NCBI RefSeq assembly: GCF_011045215.1
Contig: NZ_CP049203.1
Direction: 5' to 3' (one strand)
DNA: 4,727 bases
Source: Escherichia coli
Lineage (GTDB): Bacteria; Pseudomonadota; Gammaproteobacteria; Enterobacterales; Enterobacteriaceae
A program made the position numbers and the translations under genes. Below the pieces are notes generated by a model. It ran no database searches, was not told where the DNA came from, and saw nothing but the letters and a program-made list of their open reading frames with translations. This document shows positions 3 through 4,203 of this stretch, in pieces (position 1 is the first letter of the stretch; each line of letters starts with the position of its first letter).

Positions 3-39
3 GATGTATTTCATCCATAAATATAAGATGAAATACATC
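3..39 (-). terminator. Stem-loop just downstream of the lysozyme-like gene (13-bp stem, 11-nt loop); candidate terminator or attenuator
   Basis: gatgtatttcatc (3-15) is the exact reverse complement of gatgaaatacatc (27-39). It lies about 20 nt past the stop codon on the minus strand. The 3' flank runs off the window, so a U-tract cannot be confirmed. Confidence 0.3.
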
Positions 40-58
40 ACATATCTACAATTATATA

Positions 59-808
59 TTAACGCTTATCTCGCAACTGCGCAGCTGTATCTTTATTTCT
101 CTGATCACCTCTTTGATGTAAATTTCGATGGCTCTCTTGTGCAGCCGTCTCCCAGTCACCACGATTAACTGCAGCATTGAAATTAGGAAAATCTTTAGAT
201 AACTTAGGGATACCTAAATTAAACCCCATGTCAACCAACGCTGTTTTCCTTGAATTAGAAAAACCATCATAACCAGAATACAAAGAACGCAATCCCTTCT
301 CTGTCACTTGAACATCACTAATACATAAACCGATAACAGCATTATTTGATAAATGTAAGTTCATAGGAACTTGTCTAGAATCTTTTTTAAAATTATTAAA
401 CGCCTCTGTAATTTCCTCTTTAGATGCGGAAACCTCTTTTTCCATATCATCACCATGAGCATGCCATGTATGTGTTCTTGAAAATGGAAGGGATGCAGCC
501 ATATCAGGCGTAGATAGTAAATGACCGATTCCAACAGTAATATTTCCCTCACTGTCTTTGTACATTGTGTTTTTAAAACCTTCATGAGATTTCAAATTAT
601 TAACACACATAGTCATATAAAAACCATCATAACTCCTAGTGGAGGAAATATTTATGTGTGTCTTATCAGAAATGCCCTCATGACTATTCCCTCCAGAGTG
701 TCCACCATAGCTACTATGATTATCACCATCATAACTATGAATCGTGCCATAAGGGGTATCATGATCGTGCCATCCCGGACCTTGATTAGAACTTTCAATA
801 CCGCTCAT
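59..808 (-). CDS. T4-type lysozyme (GH24 muramidase) domain protein with Gly/Ser/His-rich N-terminal extension, 249 aa; candidate SOS-inducible cell-wall-degrading bacteriocin
   Basis: Long ORF in AT-rich DNA. Start set at ATG 808-806 (Met31 of the 279-aa track ORF) because AGAGGA lies 8 nt upstream and the earlier Met codons are upstream of the LexA box; stop TAA at 61-59. Residues ~85-249 align by eye with T4 lysozyme: SHEGFKNTMYKDSEGNITVGIGHLL vs T4L [25 protein letters not shown], with Glu, Asp and Thr at T4L-equivalent spacing (E11/D20/T26); C-terminal RKTALVDMGFNLG and DWETAAQ match T4L RRAAINMVFQMG and WDEAAV. Confidence 0.85.
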   Translation of the reverse strand: MSGIESSNQGPGWHDHDTPYGTIHSYDGDNHSSYGGHSGGNSHEGISDKTHINISSTRSYDGFYMTMCVNNLKSHEGFKNTMYKDSEGNITVGIGHLLSTPDMAASLPFSRTHTWHAHGDDMEKEVSASKEEITEAFNNFKKDSRQVPMNLHLSNNAVIGLCISDVQVTEKGLRSLYSGYDGFSNSRKTALVDMGFNLGIPKLSKDFPNFNAAVNRGDWETAAQESHRNLHQRGDQRNKDTAAQLRDKR

Positions 809-844: not shown

Positions 845-898
845 CACAAAACTGTGTTTATATACAGTATACTTACGCCTCTCCATATTCCCTGTCAA
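845..898 (-). promoter_or_regulatory. Promoter region of the lysozyme-like gene: consensus -35 TTGACA (893-898); -10 ambiguous
   Basis: Minus strand reads TTGACA-gggaatatggagaggcg-TAAGTA-TACTGTATATAAACACAG. TAAGTA (870-875) gives a 17-bp spacer but is a poor -10; TATACT (866-871) is a better hexamer but gives a 21-bp spacer. The -10 cannot be fixed from sequence alone. Confidence 0.5.
850..869 (-). promoter_or_regulatory. LexA (SOS) box
   Basis: Minus strand TACTGTATATAAACACAGTT: CTGT-N8-ACAG with AT-rich spacer, 17 of 20 matches to consensus TACTGTATATATATACAGTA, placed between the -35 and the start codon as in colicin promoters. Only one box is seen; many colicins have two. Confidence 0.65.
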
Positions 899-1115: not shown

Positions 1116-1340
1116 ATTTACCATAATCCCTTAATTGTACGCACCGCTGAAACGCTCTCAGACGCTTTCTGACGCAAAAACCGTAAAAAGAGATGTTTTC
1201 CCCCGGGTAAACCGAAAAAATGCGTCAGGAACGTTTTCAGCGCGTTGCATGACTATGCATGAAACTGAATGGCGATCGGTTTGGGCGCGTCCGGTGTCTC
1301 AAAGGCTTATTTTCGGATGTTTTCGTCCTCCGGCGTCGTT
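1116..1340 (-). other. cer: cer-like Xer site-specific recombination (multimer resolution) site: XerC/XerD core 1116-1145 plus ~190 bp accessory region
   Basis: Minus strand 1145-1116 reads GGTGCGTACAA-TTAAGGGA-TTATGGTAAAT, identical to the ColE1 cer XerC arm, 8-bp central region and XerD arm as I recall them. The accessory sequences would extend rightward on the + strand; the far boundary is approximate. Confidence 0.75.
1245..1262. promoter_or_regulatory. Candidate ArgR box within the cer accessory region
   Basis: ttGCATgactATGCAtga resembles the ARG box TnTGAATwwwwATTCAnw (two half-sites, 4-bp spacer) and lies about 100 bp from the XerC arm, where cer carries its ArgR site. The match is imperfect. 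Confidence 0.3.
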
Positions 1341-1367
1341 TTTCCGGCTCCTCCTGGTGGCCAGAAG

Positions 1368-1582
1368 CAGCACCGTAACGGTGCCTGCCTCACAGTGCTG
1401 GATCCAGCACCGCAGCACCGTAAGCAGCACCGTAAAGGGAAAATCCAGCCACAATCCAGCACCATAACAGGCACCGTTACAGTGCCTGTTGTTGATTAAC
1501 ACCATGATTAATAAGGATTAGCACTGTAGCAGTGCCGGTTACAGTGCTTGATCCAGCCACAATCCGGCACCGTTGCGGTGCT
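1368..1582. repeat. Dense cluster of short palindromes and direct repeats built on GCACCG / CAGTGC, flanking an AT-rich core (1487-1520)
   Basis: CAGCACCGTAA x3 (1368-1378, 1413-1423, 1425-1435). Palindromes: gcaccgt-a-acggtgc (1370-1384), perfect 16-bp gtgctggatccagcac (1395-1410), ggcac-N7-gtgcc (1470-1486), gcactg-tag-cagtgc (1521-1535), gcaccg-ttg-cggtgc (1567-1581). Direct repeat atccagccacaatcc[a/g]gcacc at 1443-1463 and 1551-1571. Confidence 0.6.
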
Positions 1583-1832
1583 GCGTATGGCGGAAAAACG
1601 TAAATTTTGCCACCTGAAATAATTCTAATGCACTGATTCCAAAGAGAAATCATGCAAAACGCAGTTTTGCGACAGGTGTGGTGACAGCAGGTCAGAGAAG
1701 GGGCGGATTCAGATATGAATCCGGGCCAGATCCGGGCATTAAGGGGTTCCCGGAAACATGAATAAGATTGCCAGTGCACGGGGATTTTTAATCCCCTGCC
1801 CCGTTGAGCCGCTCCACGGCGAAAAGGGGAAA

Positions 1833-1852
1833 GTAAAGTTAGCTAACTTTAC
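1833..1852. repeat. Perfect 20-bp palindrome gtaaagttagctaactttac; candidate operator or minus-strand terminator hairpin
   Basis: Self-complementary over all 20 bp. On the minus strand it is followed directly by TTTCCCCTTTTC and lies about 130 nt downstream of the stop of ORF 1981-2226. Confidence 0.5.
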
Positions 1853-1980
1853 ATGTCCTGCCCGGCGTTCACCGGTGTTTATGGCGGGGAACTGAACCAC
1901 CGGACGGGTGGAAACATGTGTATTCCTGTGTGCCCCTGTGTAATCCGGTGGATTTGTGTGTGCAAAATTCCGTAGCCGGT

Positions 1981-2226
1981 TCACCTGCGCCTCGCCGGCT
2001 GCCAGGTAAACGTGTTCTCTGCGGCACGATATGCTTTTGTTCGTTGAGCCTTTGCGCTTCTCGCTCTGCGTTCTGCCCGAATCATTCTCAAAACTTTTGC
2101 ACGCACTTTTCGCTTAACTTCCCGTGGCAGCTCTTCTTTGTCGGATAACTGCAACTGCGCAGCCTGTAAGGCATACGCATCACTGATACGCTTACGTTCT
2201 GCCACTGTCAGTTTCACCCAATACAT
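1981..2226 (-). CDS. Hypothetical small basic protein (81 aa), possibly ribbon-helix-helix-like DNA-binding or relaxosome-accessory remnant
   Basis: ORF with a G-rich Shine-Dalgarno-like sequence (GGGGGATAGGT) before the ATG. The protein is strongly basic and helix-prone (KRKVRAKVLRMIRAERRARSAKAQR). Its N-terminus WVKLTVAERKRISDAYA resembles the strand-helix start of RHH proteins. No firm homology; GC-rich DNA produces chance ORFs. Confidence 0.35.
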   Translation of the reverse strand: MYWVKLTVAERKRISDAYALQAAQLQLSDKEELPREVKRKVRAKVLRMIRAERRARSAKAQRTKAYRAAENTFTWQPARRR

Positions 2227-2322
2227 ACCTATCCCCCTGGCAACTTCCCGGAGTTATGCCTTTCGCTGTTTCCTGTTCGTTGTCGTTCGTCTGAGGTGTC
2301 GAGGCTGTGCCCTGACCAGGCA

Positions 2323-2498
2323 TTTTGTAGCACTGCCGCATCGGTGGCGGTGCTACAAAACATATCCTGTCCCGTCGATGGGGCAGGATATCACGTCCGT
2401 TAGTTTTCATCGTCCGGGGTGCAGGGGTGGCACTCCTGCCAGGCGTTTTGCTGAACGGCCATCACCGATGGCGGTTCAACAAAACATATCCTGTCCCG
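2323..2498. repeat. Two ~30-bp imperfect direct repeats (2345-2374 and 2469-2498) with associated inverted repeats
   Basis: tggcggt-NNN-acaaaacatatcctgtcccg occurs twice about 124 bp apart. An 11-bp inverted repeat ttttgtagcac / gtgctacaaaa (2323-2333 / 2350-2360) overlaps the first copy, and atatcctgtccc / ggggcaggatat (2362-2373 / 2380-2391) is a 12-bp inverted repeat with one mismatch. Confidence 0.55.
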
Positions 2499-2632
2499 CC
2501 TTTGCGTTCGCCGTTCGCGCATTGATGGCCAGCTTTGGCCAGTACACTGGCCATCACGCCGGGTCACTTTGTCAGATGTTAAAAAATCACGCGGTAAACG
2601 CCGTTATGCGCGGGTTTGCGCATGAAGCTCCC

Positions 2633-2667
2633 GTGCGTCACTTTGTCAAAAAGTCAAAGTGACGCAC
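2633..2667. repeat. Perfect 13-bp inverted repeat with 9-bp spacer (gtgcgtcactttg ... caaagtgacgcac)
   Basis: 2633-2645 is the exact reverse complement of 2655-2667. No flanking T-tract on either strand, so a protein-binding site is more likely than a terminator. Confidence 0.55.
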
Positions 2668-2816
2668 ATCAGGAACCGCCGGAACGTTCGTGTTGATGAC
2701 GGCAACATGCGCACAACGCAGACAGAAAATCGCGCACATATTCAGCAAAAAATAAGCGTCACGGGGTGTTAATTTCGTGCAGCCCACGCGTGGCAGGGCT
2801 TGTGTGATAATTTTCA

Positions 2817-2852
2817 GTGACGTCACCTGGTGTGATGACCAGGTGACGCACA
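2817..2852. repeat. Inverted repeat cgtcacctggt / accaggtgacg (11-bp arms, 6-bp spacer) carrying GTGACG(T/C)CAC motifs, about 40 bp upstream of rop
   Basis: 2821-2831 pairs with 2838-2848. The 10-bp palindrome gtgacgtcac sits at 2817-2826 and GTGACGCAC at 2844-2852; the same 9-mer occurs at 2659-2667 and inverted at 2633-2641. Confidence 0.55.
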
Positions 2853-2891
2853 GGCGGACGTAATAAACACCAGTAACGGAGACGGGAGAAC

Positions 2892-3086
2892 GTGAACAAA
2901 CAGCAACAGACCGCGCTCAACATGGCGCGATTCATCAAAAGCCAGAGCCTGACATTACTCGGGAAACTTGACGCTCTGGACGCCGACGAACAGGCCACCC
3001 TGTGCGAACGGCTACACGAACTGGCGGAAGAACTCTGTGACAGCGTACAGACGCACTTTGAGGCGCAGTACAGCACGGAACCATAA
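2892..3086 (+). CDS. rop: Rop/Rom, RNA I-RNA II pairing modulator of ColE1-type replicons (64 aa, GTG start)
   Basis: MNKQQQTALNMARFIKSQSLTLLGKLDALDADEQATLCERLHELAEELC aligns along its length with pMB1/pBR322 Rop (MTKQEKTALNMARFIRSQTLTLLEKLNELDADEQADICESLHDHADELY, from memory). It is oriented toward the origin as in pBR322. Stop TAA at 3084-3086; GGAGA/GGGAGA precedes the GTG. Confidence 0.9.
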   Translation: MNKQQQTALNMARFIKSQSLTLLGKLDALDADEQATLCERLHELAEELCDSVQTHFEAQYSTEP

Positions 3087-3796
3087 CAGGGGCTGGCGAA
3101 AGCGGTCGCGGCTCGTCCGTGAGCGTTTTCGCCAGCAGACAAGCCCGGAGAGCGCGTCAGGACATGGGCTGAGAGAAACACCGGCGCGTAAGTGCTCAAA
3201 TCAGACTGGCGGAGACATTCCGCTTCCTCGCCCACTCGCTCACTACGTTCGGTCGCTGGGGCTGCGGCGAGCGGTGACGGCTCTCTCATAACGGCGGACA
3301 GTTTATCCACAGAATCGGGGGATAAGCCGGACAGAACATGTGAGCAAAAAGCACGAACAAAAAGGCCGCGGCGGGGCCGTTTTTCCATAGGCTCCGCCTC
3401 CCCCTGGCGAGCTTCACACTTTTCGAAGCTGCAAGCCTAGGATTTGACGAAACCCGATGTGGCTTCAAGATCATCACCGTTTCCGGTGAATCGCTCCCCC
3501 CTGCGACCTCCACATTCCCGCCATATCGTTTGCCGGATACCTTACCGCCTTTCCCCTTGCGGGACCGTGGCGCTTTCTCATAGCTCACGTGCATCTCTGC
3601 GGTATCTCGGGCGACTTAGGCAGTTCGCTCCAGGTCTGGCTGTATGCAGGACCCCCCCTTTCAGCCTGACTGCTGCGCCTGTTCCGGTAACTGTTCTCTT
3701 GAGGCCAACCCGGAAAGACACGCCTTAACGCCACTGGCAGCAGCCACTGGTAACTGGATTTGCAGAGCGAGATGTATACAGATGGTTACAGAGTTC

Positions 3797-3825
3797 TTGA
3801 GTAACAGCCCTCTTATGGCTACACT
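3797..3825 (+). promoter_or_regulatory. RNA I promoter (-35 TTGAGT, 17-bp spacer, -10 TACACT)
   Basis: Positionally equivalent to the pBR322 RNA I promoter (TTGAAG-N17-TACACT), with the transcript start about 7 nt downstream. Confidence 0.6.
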
Positions 3826-3831
3826 AGAGGG

Positions 3832-3940
3832 ACAGTTTTTAGGTAATCTGCGCTCTGCGATAGCCAGTTACCATTGGAACAATGAGAAGGTGAGATGTCT
3901 CATCGCTCCCGGAAAAAACCGCCTTACGGCGGTTTTTTCC
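3832..3940 (+). ncRNA. RNA I (antisense replication inhibitor)
   Basis: Begins ACAGTTTTTAGGTAATCTGCGCTCTGC (pMB1 RNA I begins ACAGTATTTGGTATCTGCGCTCTGC) and ends in the hairpin plus U-tract aaaaaaccgcc-ttac-ggcggtttttt (3913-3936). About 108 nt, antisense to the 5' end of RNA II. Confidence 0.8.
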
Positions 3941-3953
3941 GTTTACAAGCCGA

Positions 3954-3982
3954 AGATTACGCGCAGCGGCAAAGGATCTCAA
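3954..3982 (-). promoter_or_regulatory. RNA II promoter (-35 TTGAGA, 17-bp spacer, -10 TAATCT)
   Basis: Minus strand reads TTGAGA-tcctttgccgctgcgcg-TAATCT-tcggctt-G. The hexamers are identical to the pBR322 RNA II promoter. Confidence 0.7.
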
Positions 3983-4203
3983 GAGGATCTTTTGCGATCC
4001 GCCTGAAACTCATCACCGTAATTCCGTCTGTGGAATAAACGCAACCTTTTGCACATTATCGGTTAAATCATAACGAATTTGCATATACAACTGCGGTTCA
4101 AAGCCAGTAAACTGGGGGGCGAAGCCCAACCGTTACCAGCTTTGGTGACGTAATTTCCTGAAGTTCCAGCGTAGAACACCAGTTACCAAAAAACGAACAC
4201 AAC

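Follow-up and report, generated by a model that had tools for sequence, protein, structure and literature searches.

A probable very small colicin-like toxin with a disordered entry tail and a lysozyme domain on an Escherichia coli plasmid

To our knowledge, pesticin of Yersinia pestis is the only lysozyme bacteriocin that has been characterized. Both pesticin and the pesticin-like telocin TelB combine a killing domain of the T4-lysozyme fold with a periplasmic peptidoglycan target and a periplasmic immunity protein (PMC12042878). Colicin E9 (ColE9) enters its target by threading through a porin and being captured by Tol (PMC6455109). The published core of the TolB box reads DG(S/T)GWSSE, and colicin A carries a 12-residue TolB box, 9-KGDGTGWSSERG-20, represented by the TolB–colicin A crystal structure 3IAX (PMC2821528), as well as a TolA box formed by 57-SYNT-60 and 89-PYGR-92, in which Tyr58 is essential (PMC3365938; PMC2821528). 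For colicin N, the smallest classical colicin, most of the entry work is ascribed to a porin together with an N-terminus that is short and disordered (PMC5647543). Here, we compare with these systems a protein of 249 amino acids (aa) encoded on a 4,727-nucleotide (nt) stretch of Escherichia coli DNA (contig NZ_CP049203.1; the whole stretch is referred to as the window), in which a Gly/Ser/His-rich tail precedes a T4-type lysozyme domain.

We propose that this protein is probably a colicin-like toxin of very small size that annotation has missed, with a tail that would bring an enzyme able to cut the cell wall into competing bacteria. The observations behind this proposal are predicted disorder of the tail, conservation of a motif within it, a colicin-type genetic context, homology of the motif to a segment of bacteriocin translocation domains (T-domains) and swaps of the tail with the N-termini of colicins A and K. 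What would be new, judged from sequence, is a natural two-module bacteriocin consisting of an entry tail and a lysozyme, with a tail of the cloacin DF13 subtype of the motif that occupies the TolB-box position. A literature search, outside of which many subscription papers lay, returned no description of a natural Tol-type lysozyme bacteriocin or of this lysozyme family, and throughout the databases the family is named ‘glycoside hydrolase family protein’, ‘lysozyme’ or ‘hypothetical’, with bacteriocin in none of the names.

A disordered tail on a lysozyme body

The translation of 808..59 on the minus strand opens exactly with MSGIESSNQGPGWHDHDTPYGTIHSYDGDNHSSYGGHSGGNSHEG, contains no signal peptide and divides into the segments listed in Table 1. 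Residues 1–45 consist of 22% glycine, 18% serine and 13% histidine with 7% aliphatic residues, compared to 26% aliphatic residues in positions 67–249. AlphaFold2, run on a 29-sequence alignment, gave predicted local distance difference test (pLDDT) values below 50 for residues 1–21 and 27–43 and a confident fold from residue ~46–50, where the junction opens the ordered part with a strand (51–54) and a helix (62–76). Alignments to T4 lysozyme, obtained with phmmer against the PDB, start at query residues 64–72. In Pfam, the sole family listed is PF00959 at residues 73–234 (E=4e-8), and PF03515 is not present; the best Foldseek matches are T4 lysozyme with a template modeling (TM) score of ~0.68, normalized to target. 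The T4 lysozyme residues Glu11, Asp20 and Thr26 correspond to Glu76 (583–581), Asp85 (556–554) and Thr91 (538–536), all of which are invariant in 29 homologues. The architecture thus departs from the three-domain arrangement of translocation, receptor-binding and cytotoxic domains, consisting of a 45-residue tail and a single folded lysozyme domain, with no coiled coil and no receptor domain.

The initial annotation, made from the letters of the window, had described a low-complexity, Gly/Ser/His-rich N-terminus of ~85 residues with a GPGW motif and had read it as a possible disordered translocation domain. Composition and motif are as described, and the disorder prediction that it called for bears out the assignment, but the tail extends over ~45 residues; a length of ~85 is too long because the T4-lysozyme fold, including Glu76 and Asp85, already lies inside. 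The proposed interval, 554–808, stops exactly on the Asp85 codon and takes in ~20 enzyme residues, comprising the first helix and strand. Two further statements, that the tail has no counterpart in T4 lysozyme and that it lacks a TonB box, agree with our results. The T4 lysozyme alignments begin downstream of the tail and no phage record carries it, with phage genomes yielding only distant matches to the lysozyme domain (residues ~69–233, ≤32% identity). The pattern [DE]T..V does not occur in residues 1–66, where the nearest sequence is D17-T-P-Y-G.

Cys68 (605–603) and Cys162 (323–321), the only cysteines of the toxin, are both present in 25 of 29 homologues and both missing from the other four, with no case of one alone. 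This covariation suggests a disulfide that would be able to form only in the oxidizing periplasm after import. Relative to T4 lysozyme, residues 107–127 (about 490–428) form an inserted β-hairpin with strands at 110–117 and 120–127, which bears a His-rich, nearly invariant H-x-H-G-D-D motif (THTWHAHGDD) and could serve to bind a metal or the immunity protein.

About 50 homologues were identified in Escherichia, Klebsiella, Enterobacter, Citrobacter, Kosakonia, Pantoea, Lonsdalea, Serratia and other genera. Across them, the junction and the lysozyme body are constant and are joined to at least six unrelated N-terminal types. Homologue P0036, which opens with MPGFNYGGHGDGTGWSSERG, matches residues 1–45 of colicin A with its own residues 1–45 (PDB 3iax_B, E=8e-15), including HGDGTGWSSERG, and its gene has a dual-LexA colicin promoter upstream (contig L005). 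The tail of P0040 contains DGTSWSSERG, and the N-termini of P0028 and P0031 match colicin K and related pore-formers with 76–81% identity over 21–26 residues. That one enzyme body comes with entry N-termini from several different Tol-dependent colicins argues more strongly than any other comparison for a translocation module, a reading that is well supported at the sequence level. Three more tail types occur on the same lysozyme body, opening with MASGYQADGYYHIEITGG (P0020/P0024), MGDLNSGNSGGFGHMGDNDPY (P0025/P0027) and MTKELKGRPISGQYMGGSGKNLNERG (P0029).

Within the 19 proteins with a window-type tail, residues 8–27 have a mean pairwise identity of 79%, compared to 58% in the enzyme domain and 35% in residues 28–45. 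Because the first value exceeds the other two, GPGW is best explained as part of a selected 20-residue linear motif and not as a compositional accident. This motif, the most conserved part of the protein, follows the window-type pattern NQGPGWxDHDTPYGxIHSYDG, in which N8, G10, G12, W13, T18, P19, Y20, G21 and Y26 are invariant.

To place the motif, a tail profile of 32 positions was searched against 1.84 billion representative proteins. Beyond the lysozyme family and its fragments, it retrieved P0069 (E=3.6e-5) and P0070 (E=1e-4), both with the motif at residues 31–56. P0069, from Yersinia kristensenii, combines the Pfam families Cloacin (PF03515), Pyocin_S and Col-Pyo_DNase and is followed by a PF01320 immunity gene; by this predicted domain content, it is a bona fide nuclease bacteriocin. 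Downstream of its immunity gene, two orphan pairs of DNase domain and immunity gene (L007, 5656–7318) form a typical displaced-warhead array. Cloacin DF13 of plasmid CloDF13 carries TDPNSGPGWGTTHTPNGDIHNYNPGE at residues 40–65, which scores 28 bits against the tail profile and E=2e-5 in pairwise BLASTP; its residues 43–62 are 55% identical to window residues 8–27. When cloacin DF13 is aligned to colicin E3 (ColE3; 1JCH) with HMMER, its ‘NSGPGWGTTHTPNG’ stands column for column opposite the TolB-binding epitope ‘SDGSGWSSENNPWG’ of ColE3. The window motif thus appears, transitively through cloacin DF13, as a positional homologue of the E-colicin TolB box.

Other searches with the tail remained within the lysozyme family. 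A word-indexed search with residues 1–62 returned only truncated or frameshifted family fragments and no new fusion partner, and tblastn with residues 1–45 against 72,556 plasmids gave 49 records, all belonging to the family, although the statistics of so short a query cannot reach cloacin DF13. A phmmer search of the PDB with residues 1–65 yielded nothing meaningful (CD177, E=0.19), colicin A fragments being among the entries not matched.

Locus organization and plasmid context

Table 1 Features of the window.
Feature	Position	Strand	Description and basis
Bacteriocin-like gene	59..808	minus	249 aa plus stop; disordered tail, then GH24/T4-type lysozyme
Residues 1–45, tail	674..808	minus	Disordered, Gly/Ser/His-rich; pLDDT <50, composition, wholesale replacement in other N-terminal types
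Residues 8–27, NQGPGWHDHDTPYGTIHSYD	728..787	minus	Conserved linear epitope; identity, cloacin DF13 and Yersinia matches
Residues 28–45, GDNHSSYGGHSGGNSHEG	674..727	minus	Variable G/S/H/N spacer; 35% pairwise identity, pLDDT 27–44
Residues 46–66, junction	611..673	minus	H-x-G-[IV]-x-D-x-T-x-I...ST[KR]xY[ND]G; present in all N-terminal types
Residues 67–249	62..610	minus	Muramidase domain of T4-lysozyme fold; phmmer, PF00959, Foldseek, triad
−35 hexamer TTGACA	893..898	minus	17-nt spacer, then −10-like TAAGTA at 875–870
Single LexA (SOS) box CTGTatataaacACAG	852..867	minus	Perfect; directly after −10, 44 nt upstream of ATG
Inverted repeat GATGTATTTCATC / GATGAAATACATC	3..39		Perfect, 13 bp, 11-nt loop; between toxin stop codon and next gene; kept in p1303_5 and L004
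Putative periplasmic immunity gene	4204..4709	minus	Open reading frames, junction sequence, homologues with intact signal peptides
rop	2892–3086		ColE1-type backbone match

The 249-aa gene is preceded by a GAGG Shine–Dalgarno sequence 8 nt 5′ of its ATG and by a promoter whose layout resembles the TTGACA-17 nt-TAATTT arrangement of p1303_5 and L005. A generic promoter scan missed it because the −10 element is weak. The LexA pattern CTGT-N8-ACAG has two matches in the window compared to 0.06 expected, the second of them inside rop. Among relatives, LexA boxes are dual and overlapping in p1303_5 and L005 and single in a Klebsiella plasmid.

On plasmid p1303_5 of E. coli 1303, an 88%-identical homologue lies behind a colicin promoter of the classic kind, in which two LexA boxes overlap. 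There, the lysozyme gene is followed by a 159-aa signal-peptide protein (MIKRLLFLYVALLFLSEGAYA/SV) and then by a gene of 43 aa that bears the annotation ‘colicin release lysis protein’; its canonical lipoprotein product begins with MRGLVFCALILILPGCQANYIRDVQGG and contains the lipobox LPGC and QANYIRDVQGG. The genes of a 3.9-kb Klebsiella plasmid (L003) are arranged likewise; this plasmid has one LexA box, and its lysis gene lies at about 582–695. The lysis lipoprotein gene is absent from the window, where divergence from p1303_5 begins right after the immunity open reading frame (ORF). Comparison of window positions 4000–4245 with L002 (3250–3400) revealed ~230 nt of unrelated sequence instead of the lysis gene, up to the conserved AAAGGATCTTCTTGAGATCC at the origin edge. 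Taken together, gene content and order indicate that the locus is a colicin-type operon and not a phage lysis cassette.

The proteins encoded downstream of the toxin in the window and its relatives share 41–55% identity with one another, a signal peptide in all and two invariant cysteines, and the candidate has no match in Pfam, NCBIfam or the PDB. This adjacent signal-peptide protein is a putative immunity protein. In the window, its start is unusual. A strong Shine–Dalgarno sequence and ATG 4709 lead into only nine codons (MLKRFFFVQ) before a stop; a T9 run at 4697–4689 puts this ATG out of frame with the 159-aa ORF, and the TGA of the leader overlaps ATG 4683 as ATGA, making termination–reinitiation possible. 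One added T would give a normal, homologue-like signal peptide, MLKRFFFCAMILFSGSIYA/SV. The metagenome contig L004 carries the identical T9 and an immunity-like gene that is broken further. The toxin ORF of the window is intact and keeps all invariant residues. The hairpin between the two genes may act as an attenuator or RNA-stability element that sets the toxin:immunity expression ratio. Next to P0036, on L005 (2087–2713, minus strand), stands a convergent 208-aa signal-peptide protein that is not of the 159-aa type, suggesting a second immunity family for a lysozyme body that has diverged to 54% identity.

The 4,727 bases of the window constitute a complete small ColE1-type plasmid because its two ends adjoin each other in the independent contig L004. 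Bases 1116–4000, including the replication origin, match thousands of ColE1-type plasmids. GC content is 54% in this backbone (rop and origin) and 36% in a cargo of ~1.8 kb that wraps round the window ends and consists of two minus-strand ORFs of 249 aa (808..59) and 159 aa (4683..4204). At the boundary between AT-rich cargo and ColE1 backbone, positions 1037–1072 form a perfect 12-bp inverted repeat (GTTTGGGAAACG / CGTTTCCCAAAC, 12-nt loop). An Rfam search of positions 3300–3950 on both strands returned no family above the gathering threshold, RNAI included, despite the ColE1-like backbone with Rop.

Relatives of the toxin occur in 12 of 5,426 complete E. coli genomes and are plasmid-borne every time. 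Megablast with the 249-aa gene found no match among these genomes, and a search in distant mode recovered a p1303_5-type allele with 80.6% identity. The two clusters examined at 90% identity, one from E. coli and one from Klebsiella, are each found on at least 1,000 contigs.

Proposed entry route and rival explanations

According to our model, the SOS response would induce the toxin gene, for which the promoter architecture is observed. Having no signal peptide, the toxin would be harmless in the producer cytoplasm until released from the damaged producer, in relatives by the lysis protein. By analogy with ColE9 (PMC6455109), the free N-terminus would then thread a pore of the outer membrane, for which a general porin is the likeliest candidate, and the epitope at residues 8–27 would reach the periplasm and capture a component of the Tol–Pal system, TolB or TolA. 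With the epitope 7 residues from the N-terminus, the following spacer of ~18 residues (28–45), ~60 Å when extended, could span the porin with the enzyme still outside. A Tol pull coupled to the proton-motive force would bring the unfolded, ~200-residue enzyme into the periplasm, where it would refold, probably locked by the Cys68–Cys162 disulfide, and act as a muramidase that cleaves peptidoglycan and lyses the target. Inner-membrane crossing would be unnecessary because the target is periplasmic. In producers, the exported neighbor protein would neutralize imported enzyme, as Pim does with pesticin.

Several findings weigh against a small colicin-like toxin or its Tol-directed entry. The protein shows no receptor-binding domain that would account for recognition of a target, and the window copy looks partly degenerate, with no lysis gene, a single LexA box and a T9-disrupted immunity start. 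Outside the family, motif matches are few (two representatives and cloacin DF13) and of modest significance. The resemblance of GPGW to a TolB box, which the initial annotation had noted as loose, survives in its position and fails in its core. Window Q-G-P-G-W-H-D-H is identical to the published core at 3 of 8 positions, with Q9 for Asp35, P11 for Ser/Thr37 and HDH for SSE, and the suggested alignment to the TolB boxes of ColE9 and colicin A came out negative, as neither peptide scores against the tail profile. Cloacin DF13 itself reportedly needs TolA, TolQ and TolR and not TolB (Thomas and Valvano, 1993); if so, TolB binding does not follow from homology to the position of the TolB box. An AlphaFold2 tandem fusion gave no help. 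It joined, through linkers, the ColE3 TolB-box peptide, a TolB propeller, window residues 1–48 and a second TolB propeller on a 10-row, ~90%-identical alignment, and was uninformative on TolB, with unfolded propellers (mean pLDDT 37.5) and a pLDDT of 23–25 for the ColE3 control peptide. The translocation-domain reading of the initial annotation is retained in a restricted form, backed by the colicin-type setting, the swapped tails and the positional homology, for 45 residues and for the cloacin DF13/Yersinia–klebicin subtype. If the protein is imported, this short tail may have to serve receptor binding as well as translocation, as the initial annotation pointed out.

Which Tol protein the epitope would meet can be argued both ways. 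A narrower form of our proposal, in which the tail is a canonical TolB epitope lying in the β-propeller canyon with W13 and Y20 in the roles of ColE9 Trp39 and Trp46, is one that we regard as tentative. It draws on the positional homology to ColE3 ‘SDGSGWSSENNPWG’ through cloacin DF13, on the natively disordered N-terminal location that TolB boxes share and on retention of G-x-G-W and P-aromatic-G. The distal aromatic after proline (N-P-W46 in ColE9) has its counterpart in T18-P19-Y20-G21, which aligns with N-P-W-G through cloacin DF13, and Y20 restores an aromatic residue that cloacin DF13 lacks; the sister protein P0036, moreover, uses a genuine colicin A TolB box on the same enzyme body. 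Against it stand the replacement of the Asp35 and Ser/Thr37 equivalents together with the whole SSE triplet, the failure of TolB-box peptides to score and the reported TolB independence of cloacin DF13, the carrier of this motif type that has been characterized. Held with equal reserve is direct binding to TolA, as in colicins A and N, through T-P-Y20-G and S-Y26-D presented on a short β-hairpin, with TolB unneeded. PYG and SYD lie six residues apart in the window protein and resemble the colicin A TolA box, both tyrosines are invariant in 17 sequences, and both AlphaFold2 runs place a weak, low-confidence hairpin on residues ~13–26 (strands about 13–18 and 21–26; pLDDT ~54 in the fusion run). 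Cloacin DF13, which has NYNP, reportedly depends on TolA, TolQ and TolR. Resemblances of three to four residues are statistically weak and serve as leads only, however; enzymatic colicins are stated to have no TolA box in their disordered regions (PMC2821528), and the window N-terminus has no significant PDB match, colicin A fragments included. More ambitious, and on balance unlikely, is the idea that the 45-residue tail is a self-sufficient, receptor-domain-free import tag that threads a porin and docks on TolA, not TolB, through a W/PYG/SYD hairpin; the protein would then be the smallest natural colicin and its tail a portable tag with which a folded enzyme of ~200 residues could be brought into the periplasm of bacteria such as Escherichia, Klebsiella or Enterobacter.

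Two explanations dispense with Tol altogether. The protein might not be imported at all, being instead an endolysin or autolysin encoded by the plasmid, such as one that lyses the host upon SOS induction, with a functionless or merely solubilizing tail. The database names fit such a role, as do a Pfam match accounted for by the enzyme domain alone and the missing lysis gene of the window copy. We consider it highly improbable, given that the protein has neither a signal peptide nor a holin partner with which to reach the producer’s own wall, that an exported protein co-occurs next to it and that relatives already possess a dedicated colicin lysis gene. A tail motif more conserved than the enzyme, and exchanged for the N-termini of colicins A and K, would also be purposeless in an endolysin. 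Alternatively, the tail could be only a TonB-dependent import or receptor-binding signal in the manner of pesticin or colicin M, addressing a TonB-dependent transporter instead of Tol. Pesticin, whose uptake depends on TonB and FyuA, offers the precedent. This explanation seems to us the least credible of all, as residues 1–66 contain no [DE]T..V, the fold that starts at residue ~46 is the lysozyme and leaves no folded receptor-binding domain, and the sole pesticin-related PDB match is the T4-lysozyme part of a pesticin–T4 lysozyme chimera (4epi). All identifiable tail homologues, by contrast, are Tol-dependent group A colicins.

Should the colicin-like reading be correct, a widespread protein annotated as glycoside hydrolase, lysozyme or hypothetical would represent an overlooked bacteriocin class, in which a Tol-type entry tail is fused straight to a lysozyme and both the receptor domain and the folded translocation domain are missing. 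It would offer the simplest natural system for studying how a disordered peptide and Tol–Pal pull a folded enzyme across the outer membrane and would reveal the binding partner of the cloacin DF13-type ‘TolB box’ variant. It would also be a natural version of the engineered lysin–bacteriocin hybrids under development against Gram-negative pathogens, and its entry tails, at least six and interchangeable on one enzyme scaffold, would amount to a ready-made kit for specificity swapping.

Comparison with known systems

Colicin Z was the first candidate for a close relative, being a 237-aa, SOS-regulated, peptidoglycan-degrading protein from a plasmid of ~4 kb (PMC6668396). We rejected it on the grounds of architecture, immunity protein, gene orientation and uptake: it has no lysozyme domain, depends on CjrC, CjrB and ExbBD for uptake, resides on another plasmid backbone, is accompanied by an oppositely transcribed immunity protein with four transmembrane segments and is not related in sequence to the window protein (PMC6668396).

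The T-domains of cloacin DF13 and klebicin-type proteins share N-x-G-x-G-W-x4-T-P-x-G-x-I-x-x-Y within a Gly-rich disordered N-terminus. In these proteins of 560–880 aa, the motif precedes a folded T-domain (PF03515), a receptor region of coiled-coil or pyocin-S type and a nuclease, whereas in the window protein 7 residues separate it from the N-terminus and 18 from the lysozyme, with no PF03515. ColE9 and ColE3, with the TolB epitope 32-GASDGSGWSSENNPW-46, resemble it in a disordered, Gly/Ser/His/Asn-rich N-terminus and in motif position. Relative to that epitope, G36, G38, W39, P45 and G47 are kept and W46 is replaced by tyrosine, D35 by glutamine, S37 by proline and S40/S41/E42 by H/D/H. 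The window protein has no equivalent of the N-terminal OmpF-binding site 1 or of the BtuB-binding coiled coil, and with its proposed periplasmic target, it would need no FtsH-dependent inner-membrane step.

In colicin A, the epitope likewise starts within 10 residues of the N-terminus, and window PYG and SYD recall its TolA box. That box, however, spans ~45 residues and folds on TolA, while both tyrosine motifs of the window lie within 9 residues, and the window sequence as such does not resemble colicin A and has no PDB match. Colicin N, with 387 aa, still possesses a folded domain for receptor binding in addition to its pore-forming warhead, where the window protein would be a natural two-module protein of 249 aa. 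The pesticin–T4 lysozyme hybrid (PDB 4epi) and the ‘lysocins’ demonstrate the concept that a bacteriocin entry module can deliver a phage-type lysozyme, but they are artificial and TonB-dependent. Pesticin itself, 357 aa long, possesses a TonB box and a folded domain that binds FyuA, neither of which the window protein has, and direct sequence similarity between the two does not extend beyond the generic lysozyme fold. With a tail like that of a Tol-dependent group A colicin and a warhead like that of pesticin, the window protein is a member of neither family.

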